The notes under the pieces: model-generated
What the model was told of the DNA's origin: nothing
The model's database searches: none
Seen by the model: the letters and a program-made list of their open reading frames with translations, nothing else
Part shown: piece by piece, positions 1 through 38,082 of the stretch
Numbering within the stretch: position 1 is the stretch's first letter
Layout of the letters: each line of letters opens with the position of its first letter
Position numbers and translations under genes: made by a program
Assembly: GCA_003503995.1 (NCBI GenBank)
Contig: DOCA01000090.1
Location: 1-38,121 of the forward strand
DNA length: 38,121 nt
Source: Holosporales bacterium
GTDB taxonomy: Bacteria; Pseudomonadota; Alphaproteobacteria; Caedimonadales; UBA9215
Direction of reading: 5' to 3'

Positions 1-73
1 TGGTGATCCACGGGTTGAATCTTTTTTTTCCCCCAAGACCAATGAGAGAGAGGAATTTTATAATTCTAAAAAA

Positions 74-661
74 ATGCTAGAAATTTGGAACCAACTCGTT
101 CCTGAGAAATTCATCAGCGGAGCCAATAGCTATCTTTCAAAGCAACTGGAAGCAGCCCTTAGGGATCAGCTAGATGAGGATTTATCTTCTTGGAAATCTG
201 TCTGTGAGAATTTCAGTTCTTCGAAGTTTCTTATGGGGGAAGTGGATTCAATCCGCGTTAAGCCTGATTTAAGCTGGCTTGTTGACCCCAAGGAGCCACG
301 GGTTTCTCGTGTTTACCAAAAACAACATTACACTTTTGATGACCGTAGGGTGGAAGCAAAACCAGTTGATTTTGAGGCTGCTGAACAAATCATTGAGTCT
401 TTAGACGAACCAAAGGTTTCAAAGGATGTCCGTTTATTTATTTTTCAGACTAATCCAGGATTTTATAAAAGCTACGTTGAAACCGCCACCGTTCTTAAAA
501 GCGGGGAAGAGCTTTATATTATCGCCCCCAGTAGTTTAGCGCGGGATAAAATTCAAGAGCAATGTTATAACGCCTTGGATGATTTTCTGAAACATAACTA
601 TCAACTTGGTTTAGTGATACAAGCTAAGGAGAAGGAGGCTTCCCATGCCCTCAAAGAATAG
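74..661 (+). CDS. hypothetical protein, possibly 5'-truncated by the window edge
   Basis: 195-aa ORF. I checked the frame and it stays open back to nt 2, so the true start may lie outside the window. No family was recognised with certainty. The C-terminal stretch FIFQTNPGFYKSY...YIIAPSSLARDKIQEQCYNAL weakly resembles a DnaA-N-terminal-like domain by eye. Confidence 0.5.
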   Translation: MLEIWNQLVPEKFISGANSYLSKQLEAALRDQLDEDLSSWKSVCENFSSSKFLMGEVDSIRVKPDLSWLVDPKEPRVSRVYQKQHYTFDDRRVEAKPVDFEAAEQIIESLDEPKVSKDVRLFIFQTNPGFYKSYVETATVLKSGEELYIIAPSSLARDKIQEQCYNALDDFLKHNYQLGLVIQAKEKEASHALKE

Positions 662-676
662 ATTTAATGAAAGAAG

Positions 677-698
677 AATGTTTCATTTTGGAAACATT
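677..698. terminator. 8-bp perfect inverted repeat aatgtttc-N6-gaaacatt; weak terminator or operator
   Basis: Read directly. It starts 16 nt after the stop of the 74..661 ORF. The stem is AT-rich and no U-tract follows immediately, so the call is tentative. Confidence 0.3.
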
Positions 699-737
699 AA
701 TAAGTATTTTGCCATACTGACAATTTAATTTAAATGA

Positions 738-766
738 TTGACAAAATAAGGTTTATTTGTTATGTT
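738..766 (+). promoter_or_regulatory. candidate sigma70-type promoter (TTGACA-17 nt-TATGTT)
   Basis: TTGACA at 738-743, a 17-nt spacer, then TATGTT at 761-766. A TATAAT also occurs at 771-776. It lies in the AT-rich 470-nt gap upstream of the tra operon. A second, weaker candidate is TTGACC at 844-849 with TTATAA/TATAAA at 868-874. Confidence 0.35.
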
Positions 767-919
767 TTACTATAATTAAAAAGAGCGCGGCTTCGCAAGT
801 CAGTCAGAAAAAACAGAGAAATCCCCAACGGATTTTAAAAGTTTTGACCAAGGCTTAAGATGCATTGTTATAAAAATGGAATAAGAGATGATGAAATTTT
901 AAATTAAGAAATAATGAGT

Positions 920-962
920 AGATCAGCAAGGTGTTTTGTCTACCAAAACACCTTGCTGATCT
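920..962. promoter_or_regulatory. perfect 18-bp stem / 7-nt loop hairpin in the operon leader
   Basis: agatcagcaaggtgtttt (920-937), loop gtctacc, then aaaacaccttgctgatct (945-962). The complementarity is perfect. No U-tract follows on the + strand. On the - strand it is followed after 5 nt by a U-rich run (ttatttcttaattt). Confidence 0.6.
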
Positions 963-1090
963 GGACAAACGATAAACGTTCTAGCCGCCCCATTCGGTTG
1001 ATGCAAAACGGAGCAGATATGGATATTATATCACATGTTATAGACCCAATTTCAAGGAAAATCGCAACAGCACCTTTGTGTTGCCGTCAG

Positions 1091-1127
1091 TTTTCCCTCC
1101 TGTTTTCTTTTTTTTCAGGAGGGAAAA
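1091..1127 (+). promoter_or_regulatory. hairpin sequestering the Shine-Dalgarno of the first operon gene
   Basis: ttttccctcctg (1091-1102) pairs perfectly with caggagggaaaa (1116-1127) across a 13-nt U-rich loop. The 3' arm contains the GGAGGG SD for the ATG at 1131. Confidence 0.5.
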
Positions 1128-1130
1128 ACC

Positions 1131-1493
1131 ATGCCTAATCTTTTGATTTCTGTTTTGAGAATAATTCGCCCTAAGGAATACACCGCAATTGTTCTTTCCT
1201 TGTTGGGCATTGCTCTCCTTTCAAGTGTGAACGCTTCCAGCCTTAATGCTGACCTCTTTGAAGGGTCTCAAAATAAAACATCTTTCAGCCTTCTTTCATC
1301 CTGCTCCGTTGAGGCTAATGCCCAAGAGAGCTTAACAAGTTTTGACGTTCAATCTACGCGACGTCAAAAATACAGCCACTCTTTTTATTCCTGTTTTGAG
1401 AGTGGCTGTCTGCTTCCCGGTAACTTGATCACAACATTTTCTTTGGGCCAATCGTCTAAGGCGAATGTTGTGGATTTGGGAGACAAGTGGTGA
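1131..1493 (+). CDS. hypothetical secreted protein with an N-terminal signal peptide
   Basis: Strong SD (GGAGGG) upstream of the ATG. The hydrophobic N-terminus IVLSLLGIALLSSVNAS looks like a signal peptide. Its end overlaps the next ORF's start (GTG 1487). No family recognised. Confidence 0.55.
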   Translation: MPNLLISVLRIIRPKEYTAIVLSLLGIALLSSVNASSLNADLFEGSQNKTSFSLLSSCSVEANAQESLTSFDVQSTRRQKYSHSFYSCFESGCLLPGNLITTFSLGQSSKANVVDLGDKW

Positions 1494-3103
1494 AACGAGA
1501 ACATTTACAGCTGATACCAAAAGTAGAAGTAGATGAAGATCCTTTGTCCTTTCTTAGGAATCACAATGCTCATCTTTATATTCCCTCTGATATTTATGAC
1601 GCTCTGATCTGTGTTTATCGTATTTCAAGACATGATAATCCCCTTGTTAACTGGAAGAAGATGAAAAAGCACATGTTTAATCATCATCTTGTTAACATTT
1701 TAAAAAGAAGCTCACTAGTTTCTTCTAATAAGGTTCGTGACCTTAAAAGAAATAGAAGGAAATACAAGCATCTGTGTTTTGGTGAAATTTCTCATCAATG
1801 GAAACTTGACCCTAAGCTTAGCTCGATTGTGAGTGAGATTATCTACTCTTTTATTTATAAGGATCCGTTCTTTTTCAAAAGAAACCCTAATCTCCTCCGC
1901 AAGGAAAAACATCTTAAAAAGATGGACAAAATCAATAAGAGACTTGCGAATACCCCCGCTCAAGAGAGCGATAAAAAGAACACTACTGTTTTGTGGAATC
2001 CGTTTAAAGGAACTTATATAAAGCCTTACGTTCCCAAGGCAGCTGACGGAAATAACAATTTCTTTATTCTTGGTGAAAATAACGCGGGAAAACATTTCCT
2101 CTGCACCGAAATCATAAAGGACGTTTTGGCCGAGGGTGGCAATGTTCTCGTCTTTGACGATTCAGATAATTATAAAAACCTTTGTGAGTCCGTTGGCGGG
2201 CAATATATCACGGAGGGTAACCTTTCTTTAATAGGCATAGACTTTTTTAAGGTTCTCCCTGAAAAAGGCGTAGAAAATTCTGATCAGTATTACTCACTCT
2301 TTGAAATGTTCTCAACTTTACTTATTTTAATGGCCAGTGATGATCATGCGTTTTGTGATTCTGCCCACAACATGGTCGAATTGGCTTTAGTTTCTGCGTG
2401 GGAGCAAAAAGGACAAGAGGCAAACCTTCTCGATGTCATAAAACATCTTGATCAACAAGAGAATGAGACTGCCTCTAAAATAGCGTTAGGTCTTACTAAA
2501 TTTGATAAACGTTATAATAATTTCTTCAACAAATCCCCACAGAGTCTTTTTGAGAAAAAATTGACGGTTGTGAATTTCAAGGGACTTGATGACCCTTTGC
2601 TTCATACGGTCATAACATCTCTTTTGGTGGGAGTTTCACATCATCAAAAAGAGGGAAAGTGTTCAAAGCCTTTTTTGGTTCTATTTGAAGACACCCGCCT
2701 TCCTGATCCTTGCCCGCTTTTTGAAAGAGTGATTATTAACTTTTCTCGAACTGCACGCTTACAACGTATTTCCTTGGGCAAAGTCTCTAGTCTTCTAGAA
2801 AACATTACTGACTTAGACACAGGAGCGCATTCAATAAATCCTAATTCGCCTTACAGTTGGGCTCATTATTCCAGCCGTTTTGATATGGCTTTTTGGCGGA
2901 ACTCAAGCTGGCATGTTTTTTTCGAGGGAGGATATAGCGGTATGGGTTTTATCGAAAAGGCTCGGAGCCTCTTTTCAAAGGAAGATGTAAAAAAATTACA
3001 TCTTCTTTCGGGACCTAAATCAATTGCCATAAGAGGCCAGATTCAAGACCTCAAAATATACACACTTAAACTTAAAGGAGAAGATTATGCAGCCGCTGCT
3101 TAA
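1487..3103 (+). CDS. TraC/VirB4 ATPase-domain paralog with non-canonical Walker motifs
   Basis: It aligns by eye with the C-terminal half of the window's own TraC. Example: GNNNFFILGENNAGKHFLCTEIIKDVLAEGGNVLVFDDSDNYKNLCESVGGQY versus GNYNFCITGKSGSGKSFLCNEIIENTLSVGGKAFVIDRGESMKDLCEFRGGTH. PFLVLFEDTR matches PFLILIDEAK, and RNSSWHVFFEG matches ENSSWKVVLQQ. The start is uncertain: GTG at 1487 with GGGAGA upstream, and the first in-frame ATG lies much further in. Confidence 0.8.
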   Translation: MVKREHLQLIPKVEVDEDPLSFLRNHNAHLYIPSDIYDALICVYRISRHDNPLVNWKKMKKHMFNHHLVNILKRSSLVSSNKVRDLKRNRRKYKHLCFGEISHQWKLDPKLSSIVSEIIYSFIYKDPFFFKRNPNLLRKEKHLKKMDKINKRLANTPAQESDKKNTTVLWNPFKGTYIKPYVPKAADGNNNFFILGENNAGKHFLCTEIIKDVLAEGGNVLVFDDSDNYKNLCESVGGQYITEGNLSLIGIDFFKVLPEKGVENSDQYYSLFEMFSTLLILMASDDHAFCDSAHNMVELALVSAWEQKGQEANLLDVIKHLDQQENETASKIALGLTKFDKRYNNFFNKSPQSLFEKKLTVVNFKGLDDPLLHTVITSLLVGVSHHQKEGKCSKPFLVLFEDTRLPDPCPLFERVIINFSRTARLQRISLGKVSSLLENITDLDTGAHSINPNSPYSWAHYSSRFDMAFWRNSSWHVFFEGGYSGMGFIEKARSLFSKEDVKKLHLLSGPKSIAIRGQIQDLKIYTLKLKGEDYAAAA

Positions 3104-3551
3104 CGCGAACATCACACAGCCAGATCATTACGTTAAAGGGCGTTCTATAGAGCCTTTGGATGTTATTGAATCTTGGAAGCTCATGCACCATGTGGCTTGT
3201 GCCTTGAAGTATATTTGTAGAGCTGGTCACAAAGATTGCGAAAGGACCGATCTTGAAAAAGCAAATTTTTATTTAGACCGATTTCTACGCATTGGCACGT
3301 CAGCAAGATCTGACTGTTATATGAACAAAAGGAACATCTCCGTTGAGAAAGTAGCCCAAGATTGGCGGCTTAATACGAGCCTTGAGTTGGCAATTATGCA
3401 TATCCATTCAGCGACCCGCTCGACATCCCCTTTTTACATCGAAGAGGCTAAAAAGGCTATCAACATTAGGCTAAAGCAACTCAAGATTATTACTCAACAG
3501 AATGCCGCTAATGAAAACTCTAAATCCTTAGCGAAAGGAAAAAAGAAATGA
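3087..3551 (+). CDS. DUF3310-like protein (phage/plasmid SaV-like N-terminal domain)
   Basis: AAGGAG SD upstream of the ATG. The N-terminus PDHYVKGRSIEPLDVIESW...ACALKYICRAGHKD..RTDLEKANFYL matches the remembered DUF3310 signature (HY..G.EP.DVI...KY..RAG.K....DL.KA..YL). The C-terminal half is unassigned. Confidence 0.6.
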   Translation: MQPLLNANITQPDHYVKGRSIEPLDVIESWKLMHHVACALKYICRAGHKDCERTDLEKANFYLDRFLRIGTSARSDCYMNKRNISVEKVAQDWRLNTSLELAIMHIHSATRSTSPFYIEEAKKAINIRLKQLKIITQQNAANENSKSLAKGKKK

Positions 3552-3913
3552 AACAGAAGCTAACTCTAAAAAGAATCCTCTCCTTGAGTCTTATCCTTGG
3601 CACACCCACAGTTTGTCATGCATCGGCAGATCTGGGACATGAAGTCTTGAGTAATCAGGAGTCAACTCTCTCCCAAGAAGAGGCAGAAATGCAAGCAGAA
3701 AGGGAGGTCGGCCGACTCTGGCTTATAGCAATGCCTCATTTGACTTCTGCAGAAAAGAACGTTGTAACGCAATATCTTCAAGTAGGAATTCAGCGAGATT
3801 ATGAAAAATCACAGCAAGTTGTTGAAAAAATTAATGCAACGAATTTAAACCCTTCCCAACACACTCAACAAATTCTGGACAGTATTGTCAAAGATATAAA
3901 GGAAACAAAATAA
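3548..3913 (+). CDS. hypothetical secreted protein
   Basis: ATGA overlap with the upstream gene. The signal peptide MKQKLTLKRILSLSLILGTPTVCHAS is near-identical in pattern to the leader of the next gene. Confidence 0.6.
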   Translation: MKQKLTLKRILSLSLILGTPTVCHASADLGHEVLSNQESTLSQEEAEMQAEREVGRLWLIAMPHLTSAEKNVVTQYLQVGIQRDYEKSQQVVEKINATNLNPSQHTQQILDSIVKDIKETK

Positions 3914-4557
3914 TGAAAAATAACCTAATAAAAAAGAGTGCAATTTCTCTGAGCCTTATACTTGGCATTTTCACAGTGTGTAATGCTTCGGAAACATCTG
4001 AGGTAAAAGTCACCGCCGTTTTGAAACATGGTCTTGGTGCCTCAACGTCTCCAACTTCAAAGGACAATCCTCGTCCAATTTTGATGCACCTTAATAATTC
4101 TGAAAACATTCCCCTTGAGTGGCAATCTGATTTGAAGAATGCGGCGATGTTAGGAAAGTGCCACGGGGACTTGTCTTCGGAGAAAGTAATTTGCCGTATC
4201 CATGCTCTCACTATTGTGAAAAGCGATGGAAGTATCCTTGAGAGGGAGGTTGACGCTTGGATTGTTGATGAGGATGGCTTACTCGGTCTTCGTGGAAAAG
4301 TTTTTGATCGGGCGAAAAAAGAAAGAAAGGCTTTCCTTGAGGTTATGGATGCCATCAAGGAAAGGAATTTAGGAACGGAGTTTTCAAAAGAAGAGTCTAG
4401 TGCACGAGCGAAGGTTTTCGATTACTGCAAGCAGTATGTGGAATTATTGAGTCCTGTGGTCTCTATTGACGCGGGACAGGTTGTGAACGTTGTTTTTAAG
4501 AACGTCTCAGACTTAGATCCTACTAAAGAACAAAATGAGAAGACTAATGTCCAGTAA
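3913..4557 (+). CDS. secreted paralog of the TraB/VirB10 C-terminal domain
   Basis: Signal peptide MKNNLIKKSAISLSLILGIFTVCNAS. The sequence RPILMHLNNSENIPLEWQSDLKNAAMLGKCHGDLSSEKVICRIHALTIVKSDGSILEREVDAWIVDEDGLLGLRGKVFD aligns with TraB QPIMMRLADHGNLPRGWKSRLKDAVMIGSCYGDLSSERAVCRIHTLSFVERSGRTVEKSVEGWIIGEDGAPGLRGKVVD. The tail SIDAGQVVNVVFKNVSDL matches VVNPGRVVDVVFKKGFDL. Confidence 0.8.
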   Translation: MKNNLIKKSAISLSLILGIFTVCNASETSEVKVTAVLKHGLGASTSPTSKDNPRPILMHLNNSENIPLEWQSDLKNAAMLGKCHGDLSSEKVICRIHALTIVKSDGSILEREVDAWIVDEDGLLGLRGKVFDRAKKERKAFLEVMDAIKERNLGTEFSKEESSARAKVFDYCKQYVELLSPVVSIDAGQVVNVVFKNVSDLDPTKEQNEKTNVQ

Positions 4558-4840
4558 GCACCGCATTGGTTTTAATTTAGACCGTCCTACAAAAATTATG
4601 GGGCTCACGAAGGATGAGTTTGCTTTGCTGATTTTTGGTCTGGCATGCTTTATGTTTTCGCCAAACAAAACTCTTGGTCTTTGCCTTATCGGAATTTGTG
4701 TTGTGTTGCTTGTCGTTGTGAAACGTCTCAAGAAACAAATTGGCGGTTTCAACATTAAGTCCTTTTTATGGTGGTATTTCGGTTTTGAAGGAGGAAATCC
4801 GACATTACCTCCTTCTCATATAAGGAAATGGAATAAATGA
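4535..4840 (+). CDS. traL: type-F conjugative transfer protein TraL (VirB3-like)
   Basis: About 100 aa with a central hydrophobic hairpin. The C-terminal PPSHIRKWNK resembles the F TraL end (..FRQWIK). It sits immediately upstream of traE. An alternative start at 4547 has a better RBS. Confidence 0.8.
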   Translation: MRRLMSSKHRIGFNLDRPTKIMGLTKDEFALLIFGLACFMFSPNKTLGLCLIGICVVLLVVVKRLKKQIGGFNIKSFLWWYFGFEGGNPTLPPSHIRKWNK

Positions 4841-5400
4841 ACATTGATATTAAAAAAAACGTAGCCATTAAATTGCTCCAACAACGTAACTTTTCATATG
4901 TGGTTGTGGTGTTTTTAATGATGGTATGCAGTGTTTTGCTGGTCAGAGTTTTGAATGTCAGCGAGCGTTTGGTTATTGTTCCGTCTTTAAGTGATCCTGA
5001 TAAACGCTATCAAATTGATGGCAGCTTTATCGATGATAGCTATTTCAAGGACTGGGCGGCAAACCTTTTAGGGGATCTATATACCGCCAATCCTAAAACA
5101 GTTCTTCAAAAGAATAAGAGCTTTCTGCATTGGTCTATTAGCACATCTACCCTGAGCAAAGATCTTGAACAGTCAGCGAAAGCTTTGAAGAAAGATCAGA
5201 TAAGCACAGCCTTTTATCCTGAGACTTTTAAAATCTCACGTCAAACAAAAGAAATCTACGTAACGGGGATGTTCCTTACCTTTTTTGGTCGTTCTCAAAA
5301 GCCGGTTACCAGTCAAAAGACATTTATTTTAGGGTGGCAGATTGTCCATGGTGGCTCTGTTGCCATCCGTTCATTGAAGGAGTTAAAAAATGAAAAGTAA
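4837..5400 (+). CDS. traE: type-F conjugative transfer protein TraE
   Basis: ATGA overlap with traL. It has an N-terminal TM (FSYVVVVFLMMVCSVLLV) and the size and architecture of F TraE, in the traL-traE-traK order. Confidence 0.85.
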   Translation: MNIDIKKNVAIKLLQQRNFSYVVVVFLMMVCSVLLVRVLNVSERLVIVPSLSDPDKRYQIDGSFIDDSYFKDWAANLLGDLYTANPKTVLQKNKSFLHWSISTSTLSKDLEQSAKALKKDQISTAFYPETFKISRQTKEIYVTGMFLTFFGRSQKPVTSQKTFILGWQIVHGGSVAIRSLKELKNEK

Positions 5401-6380: not shown

Positions 6381-7631
6381 ATGAAAAAATTCATCGATAA
6401 GATCAAATTTTCTTCTGAAGGCACCGCAGAAAGTATTAAAAAGAAACAACGTATTGCTATTGGTGTGGTCTTTTGCGTTGTGGGTGTTGTGTTCTGGGTT
6501 GCAAAATCAGGGGTAAAGAACGTTGCCACCCTTGAAACTAAGGCTGAAAAACCAAAGAAGGTCGTTGTCTCTGATCTTGTCGATGAACAAGAGACATGGG
6601 TCTCTCGCTTGGAGGAAAAGTCCAATAGCATGACGGCTCAAGTCGCTAACTATAAAAAAGAAAACGATATCCTTGGTAAACGTATAGAGAATCTTGAGGA
6701 AGCTTTAAAAGCTCAAGTAAAGGATTCACACCCCTCAAAACCAAAACCTGAAAAGACCCTCAAGGCCCCATCGTTAGGGGTGGCTCCTTTAGGGCAACCT
6801 TCTTTTCCTCAAACAAAAGAGGTCAGAAATACATTTCCGGTAACTCAAGGAGCGGAACAGGGTTCTTTTAAACCTCTTAAGAAAATTCTCTATGTCAGTG
6901 TTGGGGAGGAAGATGATTTCCATCACGTGAAGAATTATGTGGTTGCGGGAACAAACGCGCGGGCTGTTTTAACATCCGGTGTTGTTGTTTCAACATCAGT
7001 CTCTACCCAAGGAAATCCTCAACCTATTATGATGCGCTTGGCGGATCATGGAAACCTTCCAAGAGGATGGAAATCCCGTTTAAAGGATGCGGTGATGATT
7101 GGTAGTTGTTATGGGGATTTGTCATCGGAAAGAGCGGTTTGTCGAATCCATACTTTGTCTTTTGTTGAGCGTTCCGGCCGAACCGTTGAAAAGTCTGTTG
7201 AAGGCTGGATCATTGGTGAAGATGGCGCACCCGGTCTTCGCGGTAAAGTTGTAGATAAATCTGGCAAGGTTGCCCGAGAAGCCTTTGTGGCAGGCATGTT
7301 ATCAGGCATGAGCAGCTTTGTTAAAAGCTCTGCTCAAAGTTCAGTTTTCCCTGTGAGCCCGTTTGGTCAAACCAATGCTCTTAAAACAGAGGATGTCTTA
7401 AAAAGTAGTGCAGCACAAGGTACGTCAAATGCCCTTGAGAAACTAGCAGACTTTAGCATCAAACGCGCTGAGTCTATGAATCCTGTTCTTGTGGTTAATC
7501 CGGGCCGCGTTGTGGATGTTGTTTTCAAAAAAGGGTTTGATTTAAGCCCTAATCGTCAAAAGGGTCTTCGCCCTGTTCAAGCCACTTCATCTGGCAATCA
7601 AAACTTTGGAGGATCCTCAAATGGATATTAA
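6381..7631 (+). CDS. traB: type-F conjugative transfer protein TraB (VirB10-like)
   Basis: N-terminal TM (IAIGVVFCVVGVVFWVA), a coiled coil, a Pro-rich linker, and a C-terminal TrbI/VirB10-type domain (GDLSSERAVCRIH...GLRGKVVD). Confidence 0.9.
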   Translation: MKKFIDKIKFSSEGTAESIKKKQRIAIGVVFCVVGVVFWVAKSGVKNVATLETKAEKPKKVVVSDLVDEQETWVSRLEEKSNSMTAQVANYKKENDILGKRIENLEEALKAQVKDSHPSKPKPEKTLKAPSLGVAPLGQPSFPQTKEVRNTFPVTQGAEQGSFKPLKKILYVSVGEEDDFHHVKNYVVAGTNARAVLTSGVVVSTSVSTQGNPQPIMMRLADHGNLPRGWKSRLKDAVMIGSCYGDLSSERAVCRIHTLSFVERSGRTVEKSVEGWIIGEDGAPGLRGKVVDKSGKVAREAFVAGMLSGMSSFVKSSAQSSVFPVSPFGQTNALKTEDVLKSSAAQGTSNALEKLADFSIKRAESMNPVLVVNPGRVVDVVFKKGFDLSPNRQKGLRPVQATSSGNQNFGGSSNGY

Positions 7632-7860
7632 ACACATGATGACTGCAATGGGGCTTTTGTCCGTTTCACTTTTAGGGGGCTGTTCTACCTATCAAGAAAG
7701 TTTTGACTGTCCTGTGGGGGAGGGGATTCGTTGTGCCTCTCTCTCAACCATTAATAAAAAGATGGATAAGGATGAGATCGATTTAGGTCTTGAGCCAAGG
7801 TCTGCTCAAGTGACACAAACAACTTTTGGCTCTGATTTTGCCATGGATCTCAGGGGATAA
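7621..7860 (+). CDS. traV: type-F conjugative transfer lipoprotein TraV
   Basis: GGAGGA lies 7 nt upstream of the ATG at 7621. It has the lipobox LLGGC followed by the Cys pattern STYQESFDCPVGEGIRCAS typical of TraV. The track start at 7606 was rejected in favour of the RBS-supported ATG. Confidence 0.8.
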   Translation: MDIKHMMTAMGLLSVSLLGGCSTYQESFDCPVGEGIRCASLSTINKKMDKDEIDLGLEPRSAQVTQTTFGSDFAMDLRG

Positions 7861-7863
7861 GTC

Positions 7864-10437
7864 ATGATTAAAAACCTTGGTTTAAAAATTGCGTCTTTAT
7901 TTGGGGAAGGGTCTCATGGACTGAACCCCCATTATAAACCTTTAAGAGAAGCACCTTCTCTTTGCGGCAGCCTCTTCGAGTATTTGCCTTATGATACCTT
8001 TGATCCAAAAAGCCAATTGTTTTTTAACAAGGGGTCTACGGGGTTTTCTCTCATTGGGACACCTGTTGCAGGAGCAACCTTTAATGATCAAGGGAAGATA
8101 GATAAGTTTTTCAATCAACCAGGAAATTTGCCAGAAGGCTGCTCCATGCAGTTTCTTCTTATTGCTAGCCCTCGCATTGAAGAGAAGCTCAATTATTGGA
8201 AGAGTTACCGTACCAATCCCAAGTTCGCGGGATCAACGCAGAGGCGGTATGACTTTTTAAATGAAAAAGCCTTTGATAAAAGGACCCCTATCCGAGATTT
8301 TAAGGTGATTATTTCCTATACCGTTCCGGGCATTCGTAACACGCCCGTTGAAAAGGATGATTTAGATAATATACGCACGCTCCTGCAAGGAACTCTTTCT
8401 AAGGTTGGGTTACATACGGTTGTCATGGATGATAAGGATCTTATTCGTGAAGTCGGTAATTTAATTAATCATGAGAAAACCACGAAGCAAGATGAATGCT
8501 GGTATTCGGCGGTTGAAGAGATTGCAAAACTCATTCCAGATACCGATATTGATGCTGAAGTAACAAAAGATGGTTTTTATCTGAGGAACGGGAAGTTTAT
8601 TGCCCATAGTTTTATGCCAAAGACTTCACCTAAGTTGTGGGCTCTGGGTCACATGGATAAGCTCTTTGGAGATATCCTAAAGGGCCATGAGACGATCCCT
8701 TGCCCTTTTATGATGCATTATGGATTCACGATTTGTGAGGGACAATCTGGGCAGAAAAAAAGTGCCGAAGTTAAAAGAGAGATGGCCGAAAAGGCATGTC
8801 AAAATGGTCTTTCAAAATGGCAACCTGGTGTTGAAGAGGAATTCTTAGAAGCCACAGAAGTTGTGAAAGAAATCCAAAATGGCGAACGAGTCATTGATGC
8901 GTGTTTTTCAGTGACAACCTTTTGTGAGCCTAAAAAGCTAAGAGACGTTAAAAGTACTATTGAGTCTATTTGGAATGAGTGTGGTTGGTCTACATTATCA
9001 GCCACATTCCTTCATCAGTCTGTTTTCTTGGGAAGCTTGCCAATGATGTGGACAACAGACGAGAAAAGCACAAAATCTTCTCTTGGCTTAAAAAAAGAAG
9101 TTATTGGTGCTGGTCCTACGTTTTCCAATCGAGGTTTGACCCGAAAAACCATTACAAAGGAACCTCAGAATTTATTACCCATTGTTGCGGAGTGGACAGG
9201 ACAAAGAGCTCCCGGCATTCCCCTTGTTGGCAGAAGAGGCCAGTTGGCTTTTTGGTCGCCTTTTGACGGGTGCTTTGTTCCGGGAAAGAGAATGTATAAT
9301 ACAGAGGGAAATTATAACTTTTGTATCACGGGGAAATCTGGTTCCGGTAAAAGCTTTTTGTGCAATGAAATTATTGAAAATACTCTTTCTGTTGGCGGTA
9401 AAGCCTTTGTCATAGATCGAGGAGAATCGATGAAGGATTTATGTGAATTTAGGGGAGGGACTCATGTCAGTTTTGATTTATCTAAGCCCTTTTCTGTCAA
9501 TCCTTTCACCCATATTCCTGAGGGAAATTCCGAGGATGAACAACAAGATAGGGCTGCTCTCTTTGTTGGGCTTCAAAAAATTGTAAGGGAAATGGCTTTC
9601 CGAGACGGTCAAAAAGACGAAGCAGGTTATTTGAACGAGGCCATTCAAACGGTTTGGAAAACCAAGGGATCCAACGGGTCTATTGATTCCATTGCTGATC
9701 TCTTGGCTATAAACCCTGACCCTCGTGCAAAAGATATTGCGCGTTGCCTTTTGAACTTCACGAGCGAAGGACAATATGGTCAGTTTTTTAATCCACCAGC
9801 TAATATTGATATTAGCAGTGATTTTGTTGTGTTTGAAACGGCAGACATGCCTGAGGACCTCAAAGGCGTCATGTTGATGATGATGATGGTTCGGGTTTGG
9901 CAACGGATGATAGCTTCCGATAGAAATGCGCCGTTTTTAATTTTAATCGACGAGGCAAAAATCCTTCTTGATGGTAAAGAGTCATCCGCCTTCATTTCTG
10001 ATGTTGCTAGAAATGCTCGAAAATATCGTTGTGCCCTTGGATTGGCTACTCAATCTCTCAAGGATTTTTTCGGTGGAGATAACAAAGGATCAGAAGATGT
10101 TTGGGAGAACAGTTCTTGGAAGGTCGTTCTACAGCAAGAGCCTGATACAATTTCTGGGCTCAAAAGCCATAAACATCTTCAAGAATTTGTAAAAGACAGC
10201 TATCGAGAAACCATGCTTCGTTCCCTTGGCGGGGCAAGTACTTTCAGCGAAATGATTTTGTTTCATGAAGACGTGCCCTGTGTTCCCTGTCGTTTGTATT
10301 GTGATCCTTATTCAACCATTCTCTACAGCACCACTGCGGACGAAGTAAATAATATGCGGAAACTTCAAGCTTCAGGAAAAACCCTCGAAGAAAGCATTGA
10401 ATTTACCCTTGAACAACGGCAAGGAATAGCGGCATGA
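7864..10437 (+). CDS. traC: type-F conjugative transfer ATPase TraC (VirB4 family)
   Basis: 857 aa. Canonical Walker A GKSGSGKS (9331-9354) and Walker B LILIDEA (DE at 9949-9954). Syntenic between traV and traW. Confidence 0.95.
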   Translation: MIKNLGLKIASLFGEGSHGLNPHYKPLREAPSLCGSLFEYLPYDTFDPKSQLFFNKGSTGFSLIGTPVAGATFNDQGKIDKFFNQPGNLPEGCSMQFLLIASPRIEEKLNYWKSYRTNPKFAGSTQRRYDFLNEKAFDKRTPIRDFKVIISYTVPGIRNTPVEKDDLDNIRTLLQGTLSKVGLHTVVMDDKDLIREVGNLINHEKTTKQDECWYSAVEEIAKLIPDTDIDAEVTKDGFYLRNGKFIAHSFMPKTSPKLWALGHMDKLFGDILKGHETIPCPFMMHYGFTICEGQSGQKKSAEVKREMAEKACQNGLSKWQPGVEEEFLEATEVVKEIQNGERVIDACFSVTTFCEPKKLRDVKSTIESIWNECGWSTLSATFLHQSVFLGSLPMMWTTDEKSTKSSLGLKKEVIGAGPTFSNRGLTRKTITKEPQNLLPIVAEWTGQRAPGIPLVGRRGQLAFWSPFDGCFVPGKRMYNTEGNYNFCITGKSGSGKSFLCNEIIENTLSVGGKAFVIDRGESMKDLCEFRGGTHVSFDLSKPFSVNPFTHIPEGNSEDEQQDRAALFVGLQKIVREMAFRDGQKDEAGYLNEAIQTVWKTKGSNGSIDSIADLLAINPDPRAKDIARCLLNFTSEGQYGQFFNPPANIDISSDFVVFETADMPEDLKGVMLMMMMVRVWQRMIASDRNAPFLILIDEAKILLDGKESSAFISDVARNARKYRCALGLATQSLKDFFGGDNKGSEDVWENSSWKVVLQQEPDTISGLKSHKHLQEFVKDSYRETMLRSLGGASTFSEMILFHEDVPCVPCRLYCDPYSTILYSTTADEVNNMRKLQASGKTLEESIEFTLEQRQGIAA

Positions 10438-11084
10438 GGGGTAATTATTCATTGATATCTAGTCGATATCTTTATTTCGGACTTTGTTCTGTTCTTGCCT
10501 TAGGTGCTCCTCTTCTTGTTGAAGCAAAATCCTTTGCTGACTTGGCAAGCACTTTTGAAATTGAGGAAGAGAGTTTCTTAACCATGATTCAAAGGCGCGT
10601 TGAGCAAGCACGTGTTGACGGCAAATTAGAGGTTTTAGAAGAGGATGTTAAAAAGCGCGTTAAGGAACGGGTCATAACACCTATTCCCGTCCCAGGCCTT
10701 CAGAAAACATATGAAGAGCGGTCTTGGTATTTTGACCCTTCTATTACTCTTGACCATGATATCCGTGACCACAAAAGTAATCTTATTCATCCCAAAGGCA
10801 CAACCTTAAATCCTTTATCTGTTTTGAGTTGGCGGCATCCGATGATTCTCATAGACGGATCCGATGAAGAGCAAGTTTCTTGGGCTGTTTCTCAAGTAAA
10901 ATCTGGCGGCAAAATTGTCCTTATAAAGGGCTCTCCGATTACGCTTTTTCGGAATACAGGCCAGCGGTTTTATTTTGACCAAGGGGGAAAAATAACTCAG
11001 AGGTTTCAGATTAAACAAATTCCCGCGCGTATTACACAAGAGGGTCAGAAACTTCTCATTGAAGAAGTGAGGGGGAATTCATGA
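10434..11084 (+). CDS. traW: type-F conjugative transfer protein TraW
   Basis: Close pattern match to F TraW: PVPGL...ERSWYFDPSITLDHDIRD, ILIDGSDEEQVSWA and FYFDQGGKITQRFQIKQIPARI. Confidence 0.9.
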   Translation: MRGNYSLISSRYLYFGLCSVLALGAPLLVEAKSFADLASTFEIEEESFLTMIQRRVEQARVDGKLEVLEEDVKKRVKERVITPIPVPGLQKTYEERSWYFDPSITLDHDIRDHKSNLIHPKGTTLNPLSVLSWRHPMILIDGSDEEQVSWAVSQVKSGGKIVLIKGSPITLFRNTGQRFYFDQGGKITQRFQIKQIPARITQEGQKLLIEEVRGNS

Positions 11085-11485
11085 GTAAGGCACTTCATCA
11101 AAATAAAGGATTTAAAATGAAGTTTATAAAAGAAAACGAAAAATCGATCATGGTCGTGGTTGGAACTGGTTTTATATTTTGCGCTGGCTACGTAAGCGGT
11201 GGGGTGGTATTGGCTTCAAACCTCTACAAGGATCTCATCCAAGAAGAGATTCATAAGGGTATGACTCCAGTACGTGAATCTTCTGAAAAGCACACAGTTC
11301 CCGCTAAAACCTATGCATCTGGGGCCTTTGATATGGTTTTTTGGGAGAAGGCACATAAAGCGAATTTTGATGCCATCAAATTCCGCTTTAAGAGATTTCA
11401 AGAAAGCCAACAAGTTCTTTTTGAGGAGCATCTTAAGAAACAAGAAACGGGCTCTATTTTCGCTAAACCTGTGATGGAAAATTAG
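11081..11485 (+). CDS. hypothetical single-pass membrane protein
   Basis: ATGA overlap with traW. One TM (IMVVVGTGFIFCAGYVSGGVVLA). Its size and topology resemble F TrbI, but I could not see sequence similarity. Confidence 0.5.
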   Translation: MSKALHQNKGFKMKFIKENEKSIMVVVGTGFIFCAGYVSGGVVLASNLYKDLIQEEIHKGMTPVRESSEKHTVPAKTYASGAFDMVFWEKAHKANFDAIKFRFKRFQESQQVLFEEHLKKQETGSIFAKPVMEN

Positions 11486-12495: not shown

Positions 12496-12774
12496 CTAAT
12501 GGGTATCATAAACATCTTTTCGATGGTCCAAATCAACAGTTGTAATCACAAGTTGAGTATCTTCAATGACACAGATCAGTCGATAGTCACCAATACGATA
12601 ACGCCAAAGGCCAGCAAGGTTACTTTTGAGGGGTTTACCAAACTCTCTTGGGTCACCAGAATCCAAGATTTTCTGAATGTATTTTTGAAAACGCTTTTGA
12701 ATGGGCTTGTCGAGTTTGAGAAATTTCTTCTCTGCATCGCGGGTGAAAGTAAGGCTCCACTTTTTCTTAGTCAT
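12496..12774 (-). CDS. RelE/ParE-family type II toxin
   Basis: 92 aa. GLWRYRIGDYRLICVIEDTQLVITTVDLDHRKDVY is the classic RelE/StbE C-terminal pattern. It overlaps the upstream antitoxin gene by 8 nt. Confidence 0.85.
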   Translation of the reverse strand: MTKKKWSLTFTRDAEKKFLKLDKPIQKRFQKYIQKILDSGDPREFGKPLKSNLAGLWRYRIGDYRLICVIEDTQLVITTVDLDHRKDVYDTH

Positions 12775-12997
12775 CTTCTAAGAGGCCAGCTTTTTTCTGC
12801 ACGTCTTCCCAAGACACGCCTTGGTCACCACTTTTCAAATGCTCTTCATAAAGGGAAACAGCTTTTTGTATTTTTCTTTGCTTCTCGAGGTACTCGCCTA
12901 AAGCTTCTCTCAAGTAGTAGCTTTTGGGGCGATGTGTTTCCTTTGAGAGCCGATTTAGCTCTTTTTCCATGTCCTCAGGGGGGCGAAAGGTAATCAT
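12767..12997 (-). CDS. ribbon-helix-helix antitoxin (RelB/ParD/CopG-like)
   Basis: MITFRPPEDMEKELNRLSKETHRPKSYYLREALGEYL has an RHH beta-strand plus helix pattern, followed by an acidic tail. The start was moved to the internal ATG at 12997; the track start is 13039. Confidence 0.75.
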   Translation of the reverse strand: MITFRPPEDMEKELNRLSKETHRPKSYYLREALGEYLEKQRKIQKAVSLYEEHLKSGDQGVSWEDVQKKAGLLEDD

Positions 12998-13052
12998 GAT
13001 ATTTTCTCCTTTAATAGCAATGTACTCAAAGTATAACATGTATTACAAAATA

Positions 13053-13712
13053 ATGTCAAGTTTGGCTATGTCAATGTGCATTCTCTCGTCTTCGAGTCAT
13101 GGGACAGATTATAAGCGGATGGCAGATTCATTGTTGAGGGACGCTCAACAACAAATGAAAGTTCATGATGGGGAGGTTCGCTCCATTGTTGAAGGCTCAA
13201 AGGAGACCCAAGAGAAGTCTTTCTTTGGGTTTGATGAAACAGAAGAACTTTTCACAGAACGGAAACCTTTAAAGACAGGTAAAATCTGTCATGCCTCAAA
13301 AATGACGCCTCCCAGTGGCCCAAAGGCGAAATATCAAGGGGATTCCGAACTGTTTGTTTTTGTAACATTAGGCATGAGTGATGAAGCCCTTAAAATTCTC
13401 TCAATCCAAGCCCAAGAAGTAGGGGCTGTCCTTGTGATCAGAGGATTGGTTGATAACTCTTTCCAAAAAACCCACCAGCGTTTAAAAGAGCTAGCTATTC
13501 CCATCGACATTGACCCCACTTTATTTGAGAGATTTGAGATCACCCGTGTGCCAACACTTGTTTTGGCTGAAATAAAGGACGGAAAACTTACGGACGTTCA
13601 TGACAAAGTAAGAGGAAATACATCCATCAGATCAGCTTTAGAGCTATTTTCTATGGAGGGTGACCTCTTTGCTCTAGCACAGTCTTATCTTAAGAAGGGG
13701 CAGGGGGCTTAA
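13053..13712 (+). CDS. trbC: type-F pilus assembly protein TrbC
   Basis: Signal peptide MSSLAMSMCILSSSSHG. ELFVFVTLGMSDEALKILSIQAQEVGAVLVIRGL matches the TrbC core pattern. The track start at 12924 overlaps the antitoxin gene and was rejected. Confidence 0.8.
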   Translation: MSSLAMSMCILSSSSHGTDYKRMADSLLRDAQQQMKVHDGEVRSIVEGSKETQEKSFFGFDETEELFTERKPLKTGKICHASKMTPPSGPKAKYQGDSELFVFVTLGMSDEALKILSIQAQEVGAVLVIRGLVDNSFQKTHQRLKELAIPIDIDPTLFERFEITRVPTLVLAEIKDGKLTDVHDKVRGNTSIRSALELFSMEGDLFALAQSYLKKGQGA

Positions 13713-22761: not shown

Positions 22762-23337
22762 ATGGAAAACAATGAAGCTCAACACAATCCTTATCTCTAT
22801 GAGGGTTTAAGCGCAGATCTTGCATCAGAAAGAGAAAAACTGGCTAGTATGACAGGCCATCTTTCTCTTGTTGGTGACCGAATAAAAGAAGATATAACTC
22901 AGTTACACAAAGAATTTCAAGACGCAAAATCTTCCTTGGAAGGTCAACTAAGTGAAGGGTTGAGAGCTGCTTCTGAAGATTTGGCCAATCAATCTTTTAA
23001 TATATTTAAAGATAAGGTTCTTTCAAAAACCCAGGAGTCCATGTCAGGTTTAGAAAAACTGGCCAATAGAACTTACTCAAACATAAGCGATTTAACTTCT
23101 GCCTCCAGACTGAGTTTTAGGAAGCTTATTATCCTAATGTCAGTTGGGGGAATTCTTTCGGGAACTATAGGTGCTATGGGATCTGGTTTTTTCTTCAATA
23201 AATTTTTCCAAGTAAATCCCGGAACAAAGCAACATTTAGCTTGGGGAAGTGCCCTTGAAAAATCTTGGCCTGAACTCACAGAGAGAGAGCAAGATAAGTT
23301 AAACAAGCTTTTGAAGGAAAATGCCCCTCCTTGGTGA
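22762..23337 (+). CDS. hypothetical coiled-coil protein with a C-terminal TM segment
   Basis: AAGGA RBS, 12 nt after traD. A coiled-coil N-terminus is followed by LIILMSVGGILSGTIGAMGSGFFF. No family recognised. Confidence 0.5.
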   Translation: MENNEAQHNPYLYEGLSADLASEREKLASMTGHLSLVGDRIKEDITQLHKEFQDAKSSLEGQLSEGLRAASEDLANQSFNIFKDKVLSKTQESMSGLEKLANRTYSNISDLTSASRLSFRKLIILMSVGGILSGTIGAMGSGFFFNKFFQVNPGTKQHLAWGSALEKSWPELTEREQDKLNKLLKENAPPW

Positions 23338-23798
23338 TTTTTCTTGGTATTCGAGAAACAGACGATATGGGGTTGTGTTCGGGAACCTACATATATGCAC
23401 AATCTGAATTAAGAGAAACTATCGATGAAACCGCTAACAAAGTTGAAGCGTATAATGCTTTAAGTGATTGGGCTCGTTTTGGTGCAGAAACAATCACCGC
23501 CAGCAACGATCCAGACGAAATGGAGAAAGCAATAGGATATAATCTCTTGATTTGTAACTCCGTCATAGTTCAGAACATGGTTGATTTGACAGACACAATA
23601 AACAAGCTCCAGAAATCAGGAGTATCTATTGGAAAAGAGGATATTGCGCGTCTAAGCCCCTATTTAACAAGTCATATTAAACGGTTTGGGGGCTATGTTT
23701 TAGATTTAGATACCGTCCCTAAGGACATATCTCAATTGAAATGTAACGCGTTTTTGCAAGAAAAAGAAGAAGAAAGAGGTTGTATTGGACAGGAATGA
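23331..23798 (+). pseudogene. tnpA: Tn3-family transposase, C-terminal remnant only
   Basis: ELRETIDETANKVEAYNALSDWARFG...YNLLICNSVIVQNMVDL...IARLSPYLTSHIKRFGGYVLD parallels the remembered Tn3 TnpA C-terminus ([25 protein letters not shown]...LNLVTAAIVLWNTVYLE...[20 protein letters not shown]). A full TnpA is about 1000 aa; only about 130 aa remain. Confidence 0.75.
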
Positions 23799-27125: not shown

Positions 27126-27701
27126 TTATTCCTGACTCCTAGCGCGCATGATGGTCTGCCTACTTGTGTTTAATTCACGAGCTATTTCTGAAACAGTCTC
27201 TCCTTTTTGTATTTTCTCTGCGACAGATTGTTTTTGCTCTAATGATAATGTTGGCCGTCTTCCTAAGAGTTTTCCTTGTGATTTGGCCCGTGATAGGCCA
27301 GCTTGTGTACGTTCGATAAGAAGATCCCTCTCGAACTGGGCAACTGTGTTGATAATGTTCATGGTCATTCTTCCAGCTGAACTTGTGAGATCAACGCCCC
27401 CTAAAGCAAGGCAATGAACTCGAACGCCTGTTTTTTCTAAAGCTTCAACTGTCATGCTGACATCAATGGTATCTCTTCCAAGTCGATCAAGCTTGGTCAC
27501 AACAAGCACATCACCTTTCTCCATTTTATCAATCAGTCGGGAAAATCCCTTGCGTTGTTTAATGGCCATGGAACCAGAAATAGTTTCTGAGATTATTCTA
27601 TGGGGTTCAATTCTAAAACCGGCTGCTTCAATTTCAAGGATCTGGTTTTCGGGTACTTGTTCAGTGGTTGAGACACGGACATAAGCAAAAGTTCTAGACA
27701 T
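27126..27701 (-). CDS. serine recombinase (resolvase/invertase family)
   Basis: MSRTFAYVRVSTTEQ holds the catalytic Ser motif. Other matches are VTKLDRLGRD, QFERDLLIERT and a C-terminal HTH (ETVSEIARELNTSRQTIMRA). The track start at 27719 is a TTG; the ATG at 27701 gives the canonical N-terminus. Confidence 0.9.
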   Translation of the reverse strand: MSRTFAYVRVSTTEQVPENQILEIEAAGFRIEPHRIISETISGSMAIKQRKGFSRLIDKMEKGDVLVVTKLDRLGRDTIDVSMTVEALEKTGVRVHCLALGGVDLTSSAGRMTMNIINTVAQFERDLLIERTQAGLSRAKSQGKLLGRRPTLSLEQKQSVAEKIQKGETVSEIARELNTSRQTIMRARSQE

Positions 27702-27743
27702 ATTATCTTTTCTGTTCAAAATGGCTGTACGTAATTATAACAG

Positions 27744-35410: not shown

Positions 35411-35995
35411 ATGACCAAGCTACAGAAAAGAAAGCATCGAGGTAAAGGCCTGACTTTACCTATAACCAAGACACCCCTTCTCACTCTGATAATCTTTGCC
35501 ATTGGTTTTGGAGCTGGCTACTTTTATTATGAAGATCAATTGCCCGCTGTCTTTTCTTCTGAAACCGAAGCGCCAAAAATCAACATTTGCTTTTCTCCTG
35601 AAGGGCAATGTGAAAAACTGGCCCTCTTTGCCATCAATCAAGCCAAGAAAGAAATATTGGTACAATGCTACTCCTTCACGTCAAAGCCTATCGCTAATGC
35701 TTTAATTGAAGCCTCAAGGCGCGGTGTTTCTGTGAAGGTTCTTTTTGATAGAAGCCAACTCAAAGCCCCCTACTCCCAGATCCATAACCTGACCAAATCA
35801 GGTATCAAAACGAAGGTCGATTATGTCCAAGGAATTGCCCATAACAAGGTCATTATAGTGGATCAGTCCAAGTTGATTAGTGGCAGCTATAATTTTTCAG
35901 CAGCTGCCAATACCAAGAATTCAGAAAATATGTTGGTGCGACACGAGGTCGCTGAATGGAATGTTTCTAACAAAAGAAAGGAGTTGAATGTATAG
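35411..35995 (+). CDS. nuc: PLD-superfamily endonuclease Nuc (HKD motif)
   Basis: N-terminal TM/signal, then ICFSPEGQCEKL, YSFTSKPIANALIEASRRGVSVKVLFD and HNKVIIVDQSKLISGSYNFSAAANTKNSEN. These parallel plasmid pKM101 Nuc (GFSPEG..., HDKVIIVD...GSFNFTKAAETKNSEN). Confidence 0.85.
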   Translation: MTKLQKRKHRGKGLTLPITKTPLLTLIIFAIGFGAGYFYYEDQLPAVFSSETEAPKINICFSPEGQCEKLALFAINQAKKEILVQCYSFTSKPIANALIEASRRGVSVKVLFDRSQLKAPYSQIHNLTKSGIKTKVDYVQGIAHNKVIIVDQSKLISGSYNFSAAANTKNSENMLVRHEVAEWNVSNKRKELNV

Positions 35996-36564
35996 AAAAA
36001 AAATATGAATAGTTAGAAACCAGTTGTTCCGTCAACTGTCCCCTACTTAAGCGTGCGATGAGGGCAACGTCATGGTGCGAAGCCTTAAGGACAACTGTAA
36101 CCACAACGATGTCTTGTAAAAGATATCAAACTGCCAGCCAACGGCGGTGAGGTGCATGGGATGGTGGTATGGTTAACATATGTGAATCTTCGTAACTGCC
36201 GTGATTTCTAAGGAGCGAAAGGGCTGATACGCTCTAACCAAAACGGTACCATAGCTTGGATATTGATTTAGCATTGCGATATCACGGACACATAAGCTAT
36301 CGGCAGAAAGAAGGAACCTAACCCATCAATATCTATTCAGAGAAACGTGTAAACTCTGTAGAACTCCTCTTCAAAATTGAAAAGGACAGAAAATCGTGAG
36401 GTTTTCCTATGGTTCTGCAGGGATAGGAGGTTGGAAGAAGCGAATGTCGATTTGTAATGGATCGAATACGATTTTAAATGTTACTCGGCACGAAAGTGAG
36501 CCCACGTCCAACTGGTCTTTAATCGTAAGAAGGTTTGAGGAACCGACATAATGGAGGAAAGCAA

Positions 36565-38013: not shown

Positions 38014-38045
38014 CTGGGCAGAGATAATCTGCCTTATAAAGGCTT

Positions 38046-38079
38046 GAGCGGAGTGCGGTGAAAGTCGCACGCTCCGTTC
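38046..38079 (+). ncRNA. group II intron domain V (catalytic hairpin)
   Basis: gagcggagtgcg-gtgaaag-tcgcacgctccgttc is a 34-nt hairpin with the AGC triad at the 5' end, matching the DV consensus shape. Confidence 0.85.
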
Positions 38080-38082
38080 TTA

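Follow-up and report, generated by a model that had tools for sequence, protein, structure and literature searches.

The locus described here raises the question of why an element that encodes a whole F-type mating apparatus should keep, ahead of its transfer genes, a second copy of the ATPase TraC in which the active site looks dismantled. It lies on a metagenome-assembled contig of a "Holosporales bacterium", which was analysed over its whole length of 38,121 bp and is called the window in the following. The copy in question, a protein of 537 amino acids (aa) deposited as hypothetical protein DD412_03310, Holosporales bacterium (NCBI HBN22245.1) and named TraC-II here, is encoded on the plus strand at 1490..3103. 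Its residues 1-165 form a basic N-terminal extension, and its residues 166-537 a C-terminal domain with the VirB4/TraC-type ATPase fold. The canonical, full-length TraC of 857 aa is encoded on the same strand at 7864..10437 (PF11130, 2.8e-63; TIGR02746, 1.5e-151). Its motifs GKSGSGKS, FLILIDE and ARKYR...ATQS are all intact, and it is presumed to be the functional ATPase.

The ATPase-fold domain of TraC-II and its active-site motifs

A first reading of the window, made from the sequence alone (the sequence-only reading), had claimed that TraC-II is homologous to the ATPase half of the window's TraC, collinear up to the C-terminal NSSW motif, and that it lacks the N-terminal half. Both claims hold. 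BLASTP aligned the two proteins with E=2e-23 and 23% identity over 398 columns, residues 93 to 480 of TraC-II corresponding to TraC 384-757 without rearrangement. The Pfam family PF19044 (P-loop_TraG) matched above its gathering score (5e-9), and the NCBIfam model TIGR02746 for F-type TraC matched partially, at model positions 427-629 (1e-29; 103 bits vs the cut-off of 567), while VirB4_CagE was not among the NCBIfam matches at E<=0.01. At the level of structure, the AlphaFold2 (AF2) model was confident over residues 166-527, and Foldseek placed the VirB4 C-terminal domain 4ag5 on top (E=1.5e-11, template modelling score 0.66-0.69), followed by TrwK of R388 (8rtd) and HerA. The TraC_F_IV N-domain (PF11130), which covers residues 39-396 of TraC, gave no Pfam match in TraC-II, and an hhalign comparison of residues 1-165 with the TraC profile revealed no similarity to the TraC N-domain (probability 0.3). 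This confirms that TraC-II has the VirB4/TraC C-terminal ATPase fold without the N-domain of TraC. Of the features by which a TraC is recognised, it shows the C-terminal fold and lacks most of the others, namely the N-domain, the Walker A and Walker B motifs and a score above the 567-bit threshold.

In place of the N-domain, TraC-II carries an extension of 165 aa (1490..1984, plus strand) with a net charge of +18, which is predicted to be helical at low confidence; the predicted local distance difference test (pLDDT) score stays under 50 for most of its length. The extension had no match in Pfam, PHROG or NCBIfam, and a resemblance of its FGE.SH stretch to the TraC N-terminus was discarded as not significant (E=0.24). 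The whole protein had no match in PHROGs. PADLOC returned a marginal HerA match only (7e-4), which leaves a function in defence unsupported, and this reading was dropped.

The active site was compared at those positions that are conserved in at least 85% of 28 TraC sequences aligned with the paralogs (TraC numbering). The degenerate Walker A motif GENNAGKH at 2072-2095 (plus strand) faces GKSGSGKS at 9331-9354 in TraC: G493 is replaced by N, K496 corresponds to K or Q and S497 is replaced by H, so that the consensus GxxGxGK[ST] is lost. The Walker B-like strand FLVLFED at 2672-2692 (plus strand), with ED at 2687-2692 in place of DE, corresponds to FLILIDE at 9934-9954. These two motifs had already been pointed out in the sequence-only reading, the coordinates of which (2072-2095 and, for ED, 2687-2692) are exact, yet the degeneracy is much wider. 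In motif C, G520 is changed to S, and E658 is changed to N. The Walker B signature R....hhhhDE.W of TraC reads C....FLVLFED.R in TraC-II, with R687 replaced by C, D696/E697 by E/D and W699 by R or L. In motif D-E (R...G.....TQ) the arginine, R423 in TraC-II, is retained and T729/Q730 are replaced by S/S. The NSSW motif is present as WRNSSW at 2894-2911 (plus strand). Nearly all catalytic positions conserved in TraC are thus changed, and from its sequence TraC-II appears to be a pseudo-ATPase, which has retained the fold and lost the residues for ATP binding and hydrolysis.

The arginine that stayed deserves attention. R423 (2756..2758, plus strand) corresponds to TraC R719, the arginine of motif D, and is found in 6/7 paralog lineages and in 100% of the sampled TraCs. 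It aligns with Arg375 of TrwB via the common motif [GA]RK..G....Q (KGRKAG...AGLQS in TrwB), and Arg375 is the trans-acting arginine finger of this coupling protein (PMC9886983). Since the equivalence rests on a motif alignment, we treat R423 as a putative arginine-finger equivalent.

Does TraC-II nevertheless bind or hydrolyse nucleotides? With a non-canonical P-loop and the ED Walker B, it could still work as a nucleoside triphosphatase (NTPase) or as a nucleotide-binding switch. In line with this, the window copy retains G-x4-G-K, the strand FLVLFED is invariant in the close family, which speaks for constraint on the acidic pair, and F[LV][VI][LV]FED is retained in the distant relatives P0014, P0015 and L015 (relatives are numbered with P for proteins and L for contigs). 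Further, P0014 and P0015 have a canonical P-loop (GxxxSGK[ST]). However, the latter two also carry FED and lack E658, R687 and Q730 and are therefore degenerate too; indeed, no member has kept any of these three residues, not even those with an intact P-loop. Moreover, the P-loop itself is poorly preserved while the remaining protein is conserved. Close orthologs show GENNAGKH, GEKGTGQR, GEKNAGQH, SEKSAGKH and GEKSAGQH, the Walker A lysine being Q in three of the aligned sequences of the close family (P0002, P0003 and P0005). In P0006, encoded on L001, the loop was lost by an in-frame deletion of ~28 aa, and it is unrecognisable in L009 (GNPGCSQD, together with YMILLKGN at Walker B) and L015 (GKNCPQKS). 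Altogether, we consider retained NTPase or switch activity very unlikely. The variability of the P-loop, in which 6/8 columns vary vs 44% in the rest of the domain, is marginally enriched (Fisher p=0.08) and was not taken as evidence on its own.

The reading frame is closely packed between its neighbours. It had been listed as 1487..3103, corresponding to 538 aa. The uninterrupted frame stands, and the start was revised: since ortholog proteins begin with MKREH, the second GTG at 1490 (537 aa) is the likely start codon. It overlaps the stop codon of the open reading frame (ORF) 1131..1493 as GTGA and is preceded by the ribosome-binding site GGGAGA 7-12 nucleotides (nt) upstream. At the other end, the gene for a DUF3310 protein opens with ATG at 3087, 17 nt ahead of the TraC-II stop codon, and is preceded by AAGGAG. 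Thus, the coupling to both neighbours, as originally suggested, is borne out. We also noticed that, within this plasmid clade, almost every paralog and TraC has Ala-Ala at its C-terminus (YAAAA, GIAA, RKAA, INAA), as seen at 3089-3103 and 10423-10437 of the window, in L004, L005 and L009 and in P0014-P0022. This is partly due to overlapping downstream starts; the proteins could also have a C-terminal signal in common, for example a protease tag.

Selection on TraC-II and the origin of TraC copies

A protein with so many altered motifs might be a decaying remnant of a former TraC, a pseudogene that is still open by chance. The truncated architecture and the lost motifs would fit, as would a ratio of nonsynonymous to synonymous substitutions (dN/dS) above that of the neighbouring genes for the replication initiator (Rep) and the DUF3310 protein, and the damage seen in one related cassette (L001, see below). 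The sequence-only reading had taken the opposite view, that the gene looks maintained, and had proposed a survey of related transfer (tra) loci together with dN/dS. In a search of 5.8 billion proteins, seven close relatives with 68-97% identity were found, and short, distant relatives came from a profile search that exhaustively covered 1.84 billion cluster representatives. About ten relatives of TraC-II are intact, and the frame is uninterrupted in every recovered copy that is not truncated by a contig end, at a DNA divergence of 13-20%. When neutral mutation was simulated at this divergence, the frame stayed free of stop codons in <=0.05% of the trials. Pairwise dN/dS (Nei-Gojobori) was 0.24-0.42 over dS 0.1-0.8, and it was even along the protein, with 0.26 in the N-terminal extension and 0.27 in the ATPase domain. 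For comparison, dN/dS was 0.05-0.14 for the DUF3310 gene, 0.10-0.19 for Rep and 0.56-0.82 for orfS, the small ORF upstream of TraC-II. In addition, the position of the gene and its partner genes are conserved down to 28-31% protein identity. We conclude that TraC-II is maintained under purifying selection and is not decaying. None of the findings that the sequence-only reading had named as refuting turned up in these comparisons. The pseudogene reading, to which we assign next to no probability, was rejected on the basis of dN/dS, the neutral simulation and the intact frames.

A scan of GTDB genomes with the paralog profile revealed no relative, and the PLSDB plasmids contained no paralog, with genuine TraCs at 25-28% identity as the only matches. 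The TraC of the window is itself at most ~30% identical to anything in PLSDB.

To which TraC is TraC-II related? A neighbour-joining (NJ) tree built from the ATPase domain united the paralogs, among them the window type, P0014, P0015 and that of L009, in one clade with 100% bootstrap support on a long branch. TraC-II is therefore no recent copy of the adjacent TraC; because of the long branch the root of the clade cannot be placed in the NJ tree. The paralogs are thus an old, fast-evolving and monophyletic family.

TraC-II is not the only TraC copy that is reduced to the C-terminal domain (CTD). On contig L013 (921-4926), a full-length TraC of 854 aa is followed directly by P0022 and then by TraW. 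P0022 has 483 aa, consists of the CTD only, has lost Walker A and shows LIDN as Walker B. It is 50% identical to the CTD of the neighbouring TraC vs ~32% to other TraCs, which points to an independent tandem duplication; P0021 and P0024 group with it. Another CTD-only protein, P0017 (460 aa, with GSSGSGKK and LLNES), is encoded on L010 in the head position after the Rep-like gene. It is 41-47% identical to the C-terminal domains of window-type TraCs and shares with the paralog clade the derived changes E658N and R687C. P0017 may therefore have a common origin with this clade, or it may represent a third independent origin. Degenerate TraC copies that consist of the CTD only therefore arose at least twice.

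A second transfer protein is present in partial copy in the window. An ORF of 214 aa (3913..4557, plus strand) encodes the C-terminal domain of the VirB10-like TraB (BLASTP against the window's TraB: E=8e-41, 37% identity, TraB residues 210-395; NCBIfam TraB, 2.5e-9). It has an internal deletion of ~24 aa and is devoid of the N-terminal and coiled-coil parts. L005 has this partial copy as well (43% identity), and so does L002, in a frameshifted form. As a separate observation, L010 contains at 3750-5111 two TraE-family genes (174 and 190 aa) with an ORF of 90 aa between them, another tra duplication in this plasmid group.

The cassette of TraC-II and its linkage to the replicon

In the window and in every related contig that is long enough (L001, L002, L004-L007, L005, L009 and L015), the gene order is the same: first a Rep-like gene, then a small ORF whose product has a hydrophobic N-terminus, followed by the TraC-II gene, the DUF3310 gene, variable genes and then TraL-TraE-TraK-TraB-TraV-TraC; the contig L015 stops just past the DUF3310 gene, and there the comparison ends with this gene. 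Position and pairing with the DUF3310 gene are conserved even where the paralog is 28-31% identical to the window copy (L009 and L015).

The small ORF, orfS (1131..1493, plus strand), is always located directly upstream of the paralog gene and encodes 120 aa with an N-terminal hydrophobic segment. It had no family match in Pfam, PHROGs or NCBIfam, and homologs are present at the same position in L004, L005, L001, L015 and L014, while L009 has a small ORF there. The DUF3310 gene (3087..3551, plus strand; 154 aa; Pfam PF11753, 3.5e-12) starts inside the 3' end of the TraC-II gene. It was found 3' of the paralog gene in the window, L002, L004-L007, L005, L009 and L015, and in a frameshifted form in L001. 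Its AF2 model is all-helical (pLDDT 82) and had no fold match in the PDB (best E=0.6); in the literature, DUF3310 occurs in phage annotation only.

Upstream of these genes lies a structured leader. A sigma-70-like promoter candidate for orfS, TraC-II and the DUF3310 gene, a consensus match only, is located at 738..766 on the plus strand (TTGACA-17-TATGTT with TG, 10/12 matches), and its sequence is conserved in L004, L005 and L006. The leader further contains a perfect 19-bp inverted repeat at 920..962, the stem of which is retained through compensatory changes in L004, L005 and L003. A 12-bp hairpin follows at 1091..1127 on the plus strand (inverted repeat I3, TTTTCCCTCCTG / CAGGAGGGAAAA); its 3' arm holds the Shine-Dalgarno sequence of the ORF at 1131, and it is conserved in L005 and L006. 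An Rfam search of the leader (662-1130) gave no match. Based on gene order and overlaps, orfS, the TraC-II gene and the DUF3310 gene probably form a co-expressed three-gene cassette between Rep and the tra operon.

The cassette looks damaged in one relative. In L001, from TARA Oceans, the region 6817-8790 combines the in-frame deletion of the P-loop with a DUF3310 gene split by a frameshift; the cassette may be decaying in this lineage, or the contig may contain assembly errors. On the same contig, Rep and the small ORF are separated by an inserted F-box-like ORF.

The conserved head block (window 1-3554) opens with the Rep-like replication initiator gene, of which the 3' part is present at 1..661 on the plus strand; it is truncated by the contig start, and its frame is open from nt 2. 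The full-length homolog of 383 aa in L004 matches PHROG families of DnaD-like helicase loaders and replication initiation proteins (2.6e-29), and the window Rep is 83% identical to that of L004 and 43% to that of L009. Together with the ParA and ParB proteins encoded on related contigs, the Rep-like gene at the contig start indicates that the element is most likely a conjugative plasmid. Comparison of the contigs revealed that the head block and the tra genes have different histories. Between the window and L004, positions 1-3554 show 86% DNA identity, which breaks off sharply where the DUF3310 gene ends; the proteins of the head block are 82-87% identical, while those of the tra region are in the range of 25-37% (TraC 31%, TraE 25%). 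Between the window and L009 the relation is reversed: TraC-II, DUF3310 and Rep are 28%, 39% and 43% identical, and TraC, TraE and TraU 69%, 78% and 83%. A further mosaic segment lies inside the TraC-II gene at nt 1801-2100. These incongruent identities show that the block of Rep and cassette and the mating-apparatus operon were exchanged as separate modules.

This raises the possibility that the cassette serves the replicon, with TraC-II as a DNA-binding or ring-forming accessory protein in plasmid replication, establishment or maintenance that adjoins the tra genes by position only. The inheritance en bloc with Rep, the protein identities in the block, which track Rep and not the tra genes, and the abrupt end of the conserved segment after the DUF3310 gene would all agree with this, and so would the strongly basic N-terminal extension and a fold common to the HerA/FtsK DNA translocases. 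On the other hand, the nearest sequence relatives of TraC-II are specifically F-type TraCs (TIGR02746, 1e-29), and the basic extension is missing in the distant members P0014, P0015, P0016 and L015. Furthermore, the CTD-only copy of L013 is located inside a tra operon, and this contig has no Rep in its vicinity. Also informative in this respect is L011, from Alphaproteobacteria bacterium CG_2015-10_43_21, in which a DUF3310 gene is located in the tra operon between a TraW-like gene and TraU (12574-13595) and is translationally coupled by overlapping start and stop codons. Thus, the conserved partner of TraC-II is a tra-operon gene. In the light of these data a role in the replicon seems unlikely. 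We also looked at the ORF of 134 aa that lies between the TraW-like gene and TraU in the window (11081-11485); it is not a DUF3310 relative.

L011 is informative in a second way. Its Rep and TraC are 53% and 60% identical to those of the window, and it has no paralog, Rep being followed directly by TraL. It is the informative one of the only two loci found by a GTDB scan with window-type TraC. The absence of the paralog from L011 shows that it is accessory and dispensable in a relative. A canonical TraC, in contrast, is present wherever the contig reaches this region (window, L004/L006, L005 and L009), and L001 and L007 contain its N-terminal part before they end. The sequence-only reading is therewith refined: TraC-II belongs to an old clade, its cassette is linked to Rep and decoupled from the tra genes, and it is not universal.

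The remaining part of the window fits a conjugative element. The F-type mating apparatus is complete on the contig (TraL, E, K, B, V, C, W, U, TrbC, N, F, H and G), with TraL at 4535, TraE at 4837, a probable TraK at 5390, TraB at 6381, TraC at 7864, TraU at 11492, TrbC at 12924, TraN at 13712, TraF at 15249, TraH at 16136 and TraG at 17473. The coupling protein TraD is encoded at 21046, and the minus strand encodes a relaxase-helicase-primase of the TraA_Ti type at 27833-33496. The accessory part contains a Tn3-family transposase fragment (23331-23798), a serine resolvase (27126-27719, minus strand) and a nuclease of the phospholipase D (PLD) family (35411-35995), and at 24-26 kb the GC content is as low as 0.32. 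The contig ends in a group II intron (36020-38121) with a reverse transcriptase ORF at 36535-38013 and the Rfam matches RF02012 (36020-36155) and RF00029 (38044-38120). This intron or its repeats may have interrupted the assembly, at this point, of what is probably a circular plasmid.

Possible roles of TraC-II and comparison with known systems

We tentatively favour the view that TraC-II serves the type IV secretion system (T4SS) as a subunit with an accessory or regulatory, non-catalytic role and contacts its ATPase centre, and rate this at somewhat below an even chance. The protein would dock onto the TraC-type ATPase ring or its partners, R423 would possibly be donated in trans, and pilus or DNA-transfer activity would be modulated rather than powered by it, while its basic extension and the DUF3310 protein would supply specific contacts. 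The binding to the T4SS itself, the binding partner and the direction of the effect are what we infer here. A role as a T4SS subunit is suggested because the partner gene has a T4SS affiliation and because similar copies arose independently beside TraC. The partial TraB copy, as a second partial tra paralog in the same window, is listed in support of the link to the T4SS as well.

Several observations weigh against this view. A subunit specific for the TraC ring should co-evolve with TraC, yet the identities of cassette and TraC are decoupled: cassette and Rep are 83-87% identical between the window and L004 while the TraCs are 31% identical, and the reverse is true for L009. A cassette that resides beside TraCs of such low identity is easier to reconcile with a partner encoded in the cassette itself, or with a conserved target, than with a tightly co-evolved ring interface. 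It is the N-domain of VirB4 that anchors the protein to the membrane complex, and TraC-II has no such domain. In L011, the T4SS gene set of this plasmid family does without the paralog, and the damage in L001, where the frameshifted DUF3310 gene coincides with the deleted P-loop, suggests that some lineages may be losing the cassette or may not need it. Last but not least, the variability of the P-loop is barely above the domain average.

Interaction with TraC could also be hostile. As a dominant-negative TraC fragment, TraC-II might poison or cap the TraC rings of co-resident plasmids, or throttle the transfer of its own plasmid and so reduce the cost to an intracellular host. A CTD-only protein with a dead active site and a retained inter-subunit arginine would be suited for this, Walker A mutants of VirB4 being reportedly trans-dominant, and the mosaic contigs show that these plasmids meet and recombine. 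The accessory nature of the paralog, absent from L011, fits interference, too. However, in the window the gene seems to be co-transcribed ahead of its own tra genes and coupled to them, and the paralog co-exists with TraCs of 31% mutual identity with neither gene obviously lost. Interference or fertility inhibition is thus, in our opinion, quite unlikely.

How does TraC-II, as the T4SS subunit that we propose, compare with known proteins? With F-type TraC it shares the C-terminal P-loop NTPase fold with collinear Walker A, motif C, Walker B, motif D arginine and NSSW, and the location in an F-type tra locus. It differs by the missing TraC_F_IV N-domain, by its score of 103 vs 567 bits, by the replaced Walker A and B motifs, E658, R687 and TQ of motif E, by an unrelated basic N-terminal extension of 165 aa and by a shorter C-terminal tail. 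In the limited literature that was searchable, CTD-only TraC paralogs are not described for F-type systems, an absence that is no proof of novelty; this agrees with the earlier remark that no equivalent was known for these systems. The same remark had pointed to motif-degenerate VirB4 duplicates from the rvh P-type T4SS of Rickettsiales, and such a protein is indeed described: RvhB4-II is a conserved, fast-evolving VirB4 duplicate, VirB4-like in size and without ATPase active sites, and its function is still unknown (PMC4676284). By analogy, TraC-II may work most like RvhB4-II. In both cases a second copy of a VirB4-family protein stands beside the canonical one, has lost its active sites, evolves faster and is nevertheless conserved, in an intracellular alphaproteobacterial lineage, and the second defective scaffold paralog of the window, the TraB C-terminal domain, echoes RvhB8-II and RvhB9-II. 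Unlike TraC-II, RvhB4-II is a full-length, chromosomally encoded component of a P-type, effector-secreting system. TraC-II is CTD-only, plasmid-borne, F-type and tied to Rep, orfS and DUF3310, and it is not a member of the RvhB4-II group, since besides these features its family-model matches relate it to TraC rather than to P-type VirB4.

Two other systems are reminiscent of TraC-II. In the EccC/EssC proteins of type VII secretion (T7SS), degenerate ATPase domains of the FtsK/HerA type stand beside an active one and are thought to be regulatory or to recognise substrates. The likeness, drawn at the superfamily level only, lies in impaired copies beside an active one within the same ATPase superfamily; in contrast to the situation in the window, these domains are parts of one polypeptide and belong to another secretion system. 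The mobilisable island SGI1 encodes homologs of TraN, TraH and TraG as replacement T4SS subunits (PMC5389848). SGI1 is likewise a mobile-element module with extra copies of mating-apparatus subunits, which could reshape the conjugation machine; its proteins are full-length, functional substitutes for other subunits and not a fragment of a dead ATPase.

The cassette represents a simpler and portable form of the rickettsial theme of degenerate VirB4 proteins, which is plasmid-borne, single-domain, under selection and provided with a fixed DUF3310 partner, and the independent recurrence of such a counterpart argues that a disabled ATPase domain is useful. Due to its compactness, the cassette makes the question of degenerate VirB4 paralogs experimentally approachable in a model F-like plasmid. 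It is tempting to go one step further and to regard the CTD-only, dead TraC copies as a recurrent class of proteins that would insert into or cap the TraC/VirB4 assembly, donate an arginine finger and gate F-type conjugation, forming together with the partial TraB copy the F-type counterpart of the Rvh-II scaffold paralogs. This extension is doubtful at present. If it is true, it would mean that "duplicate and disable" is a general mode of regulation of secretion machines in intracellular bacteria.

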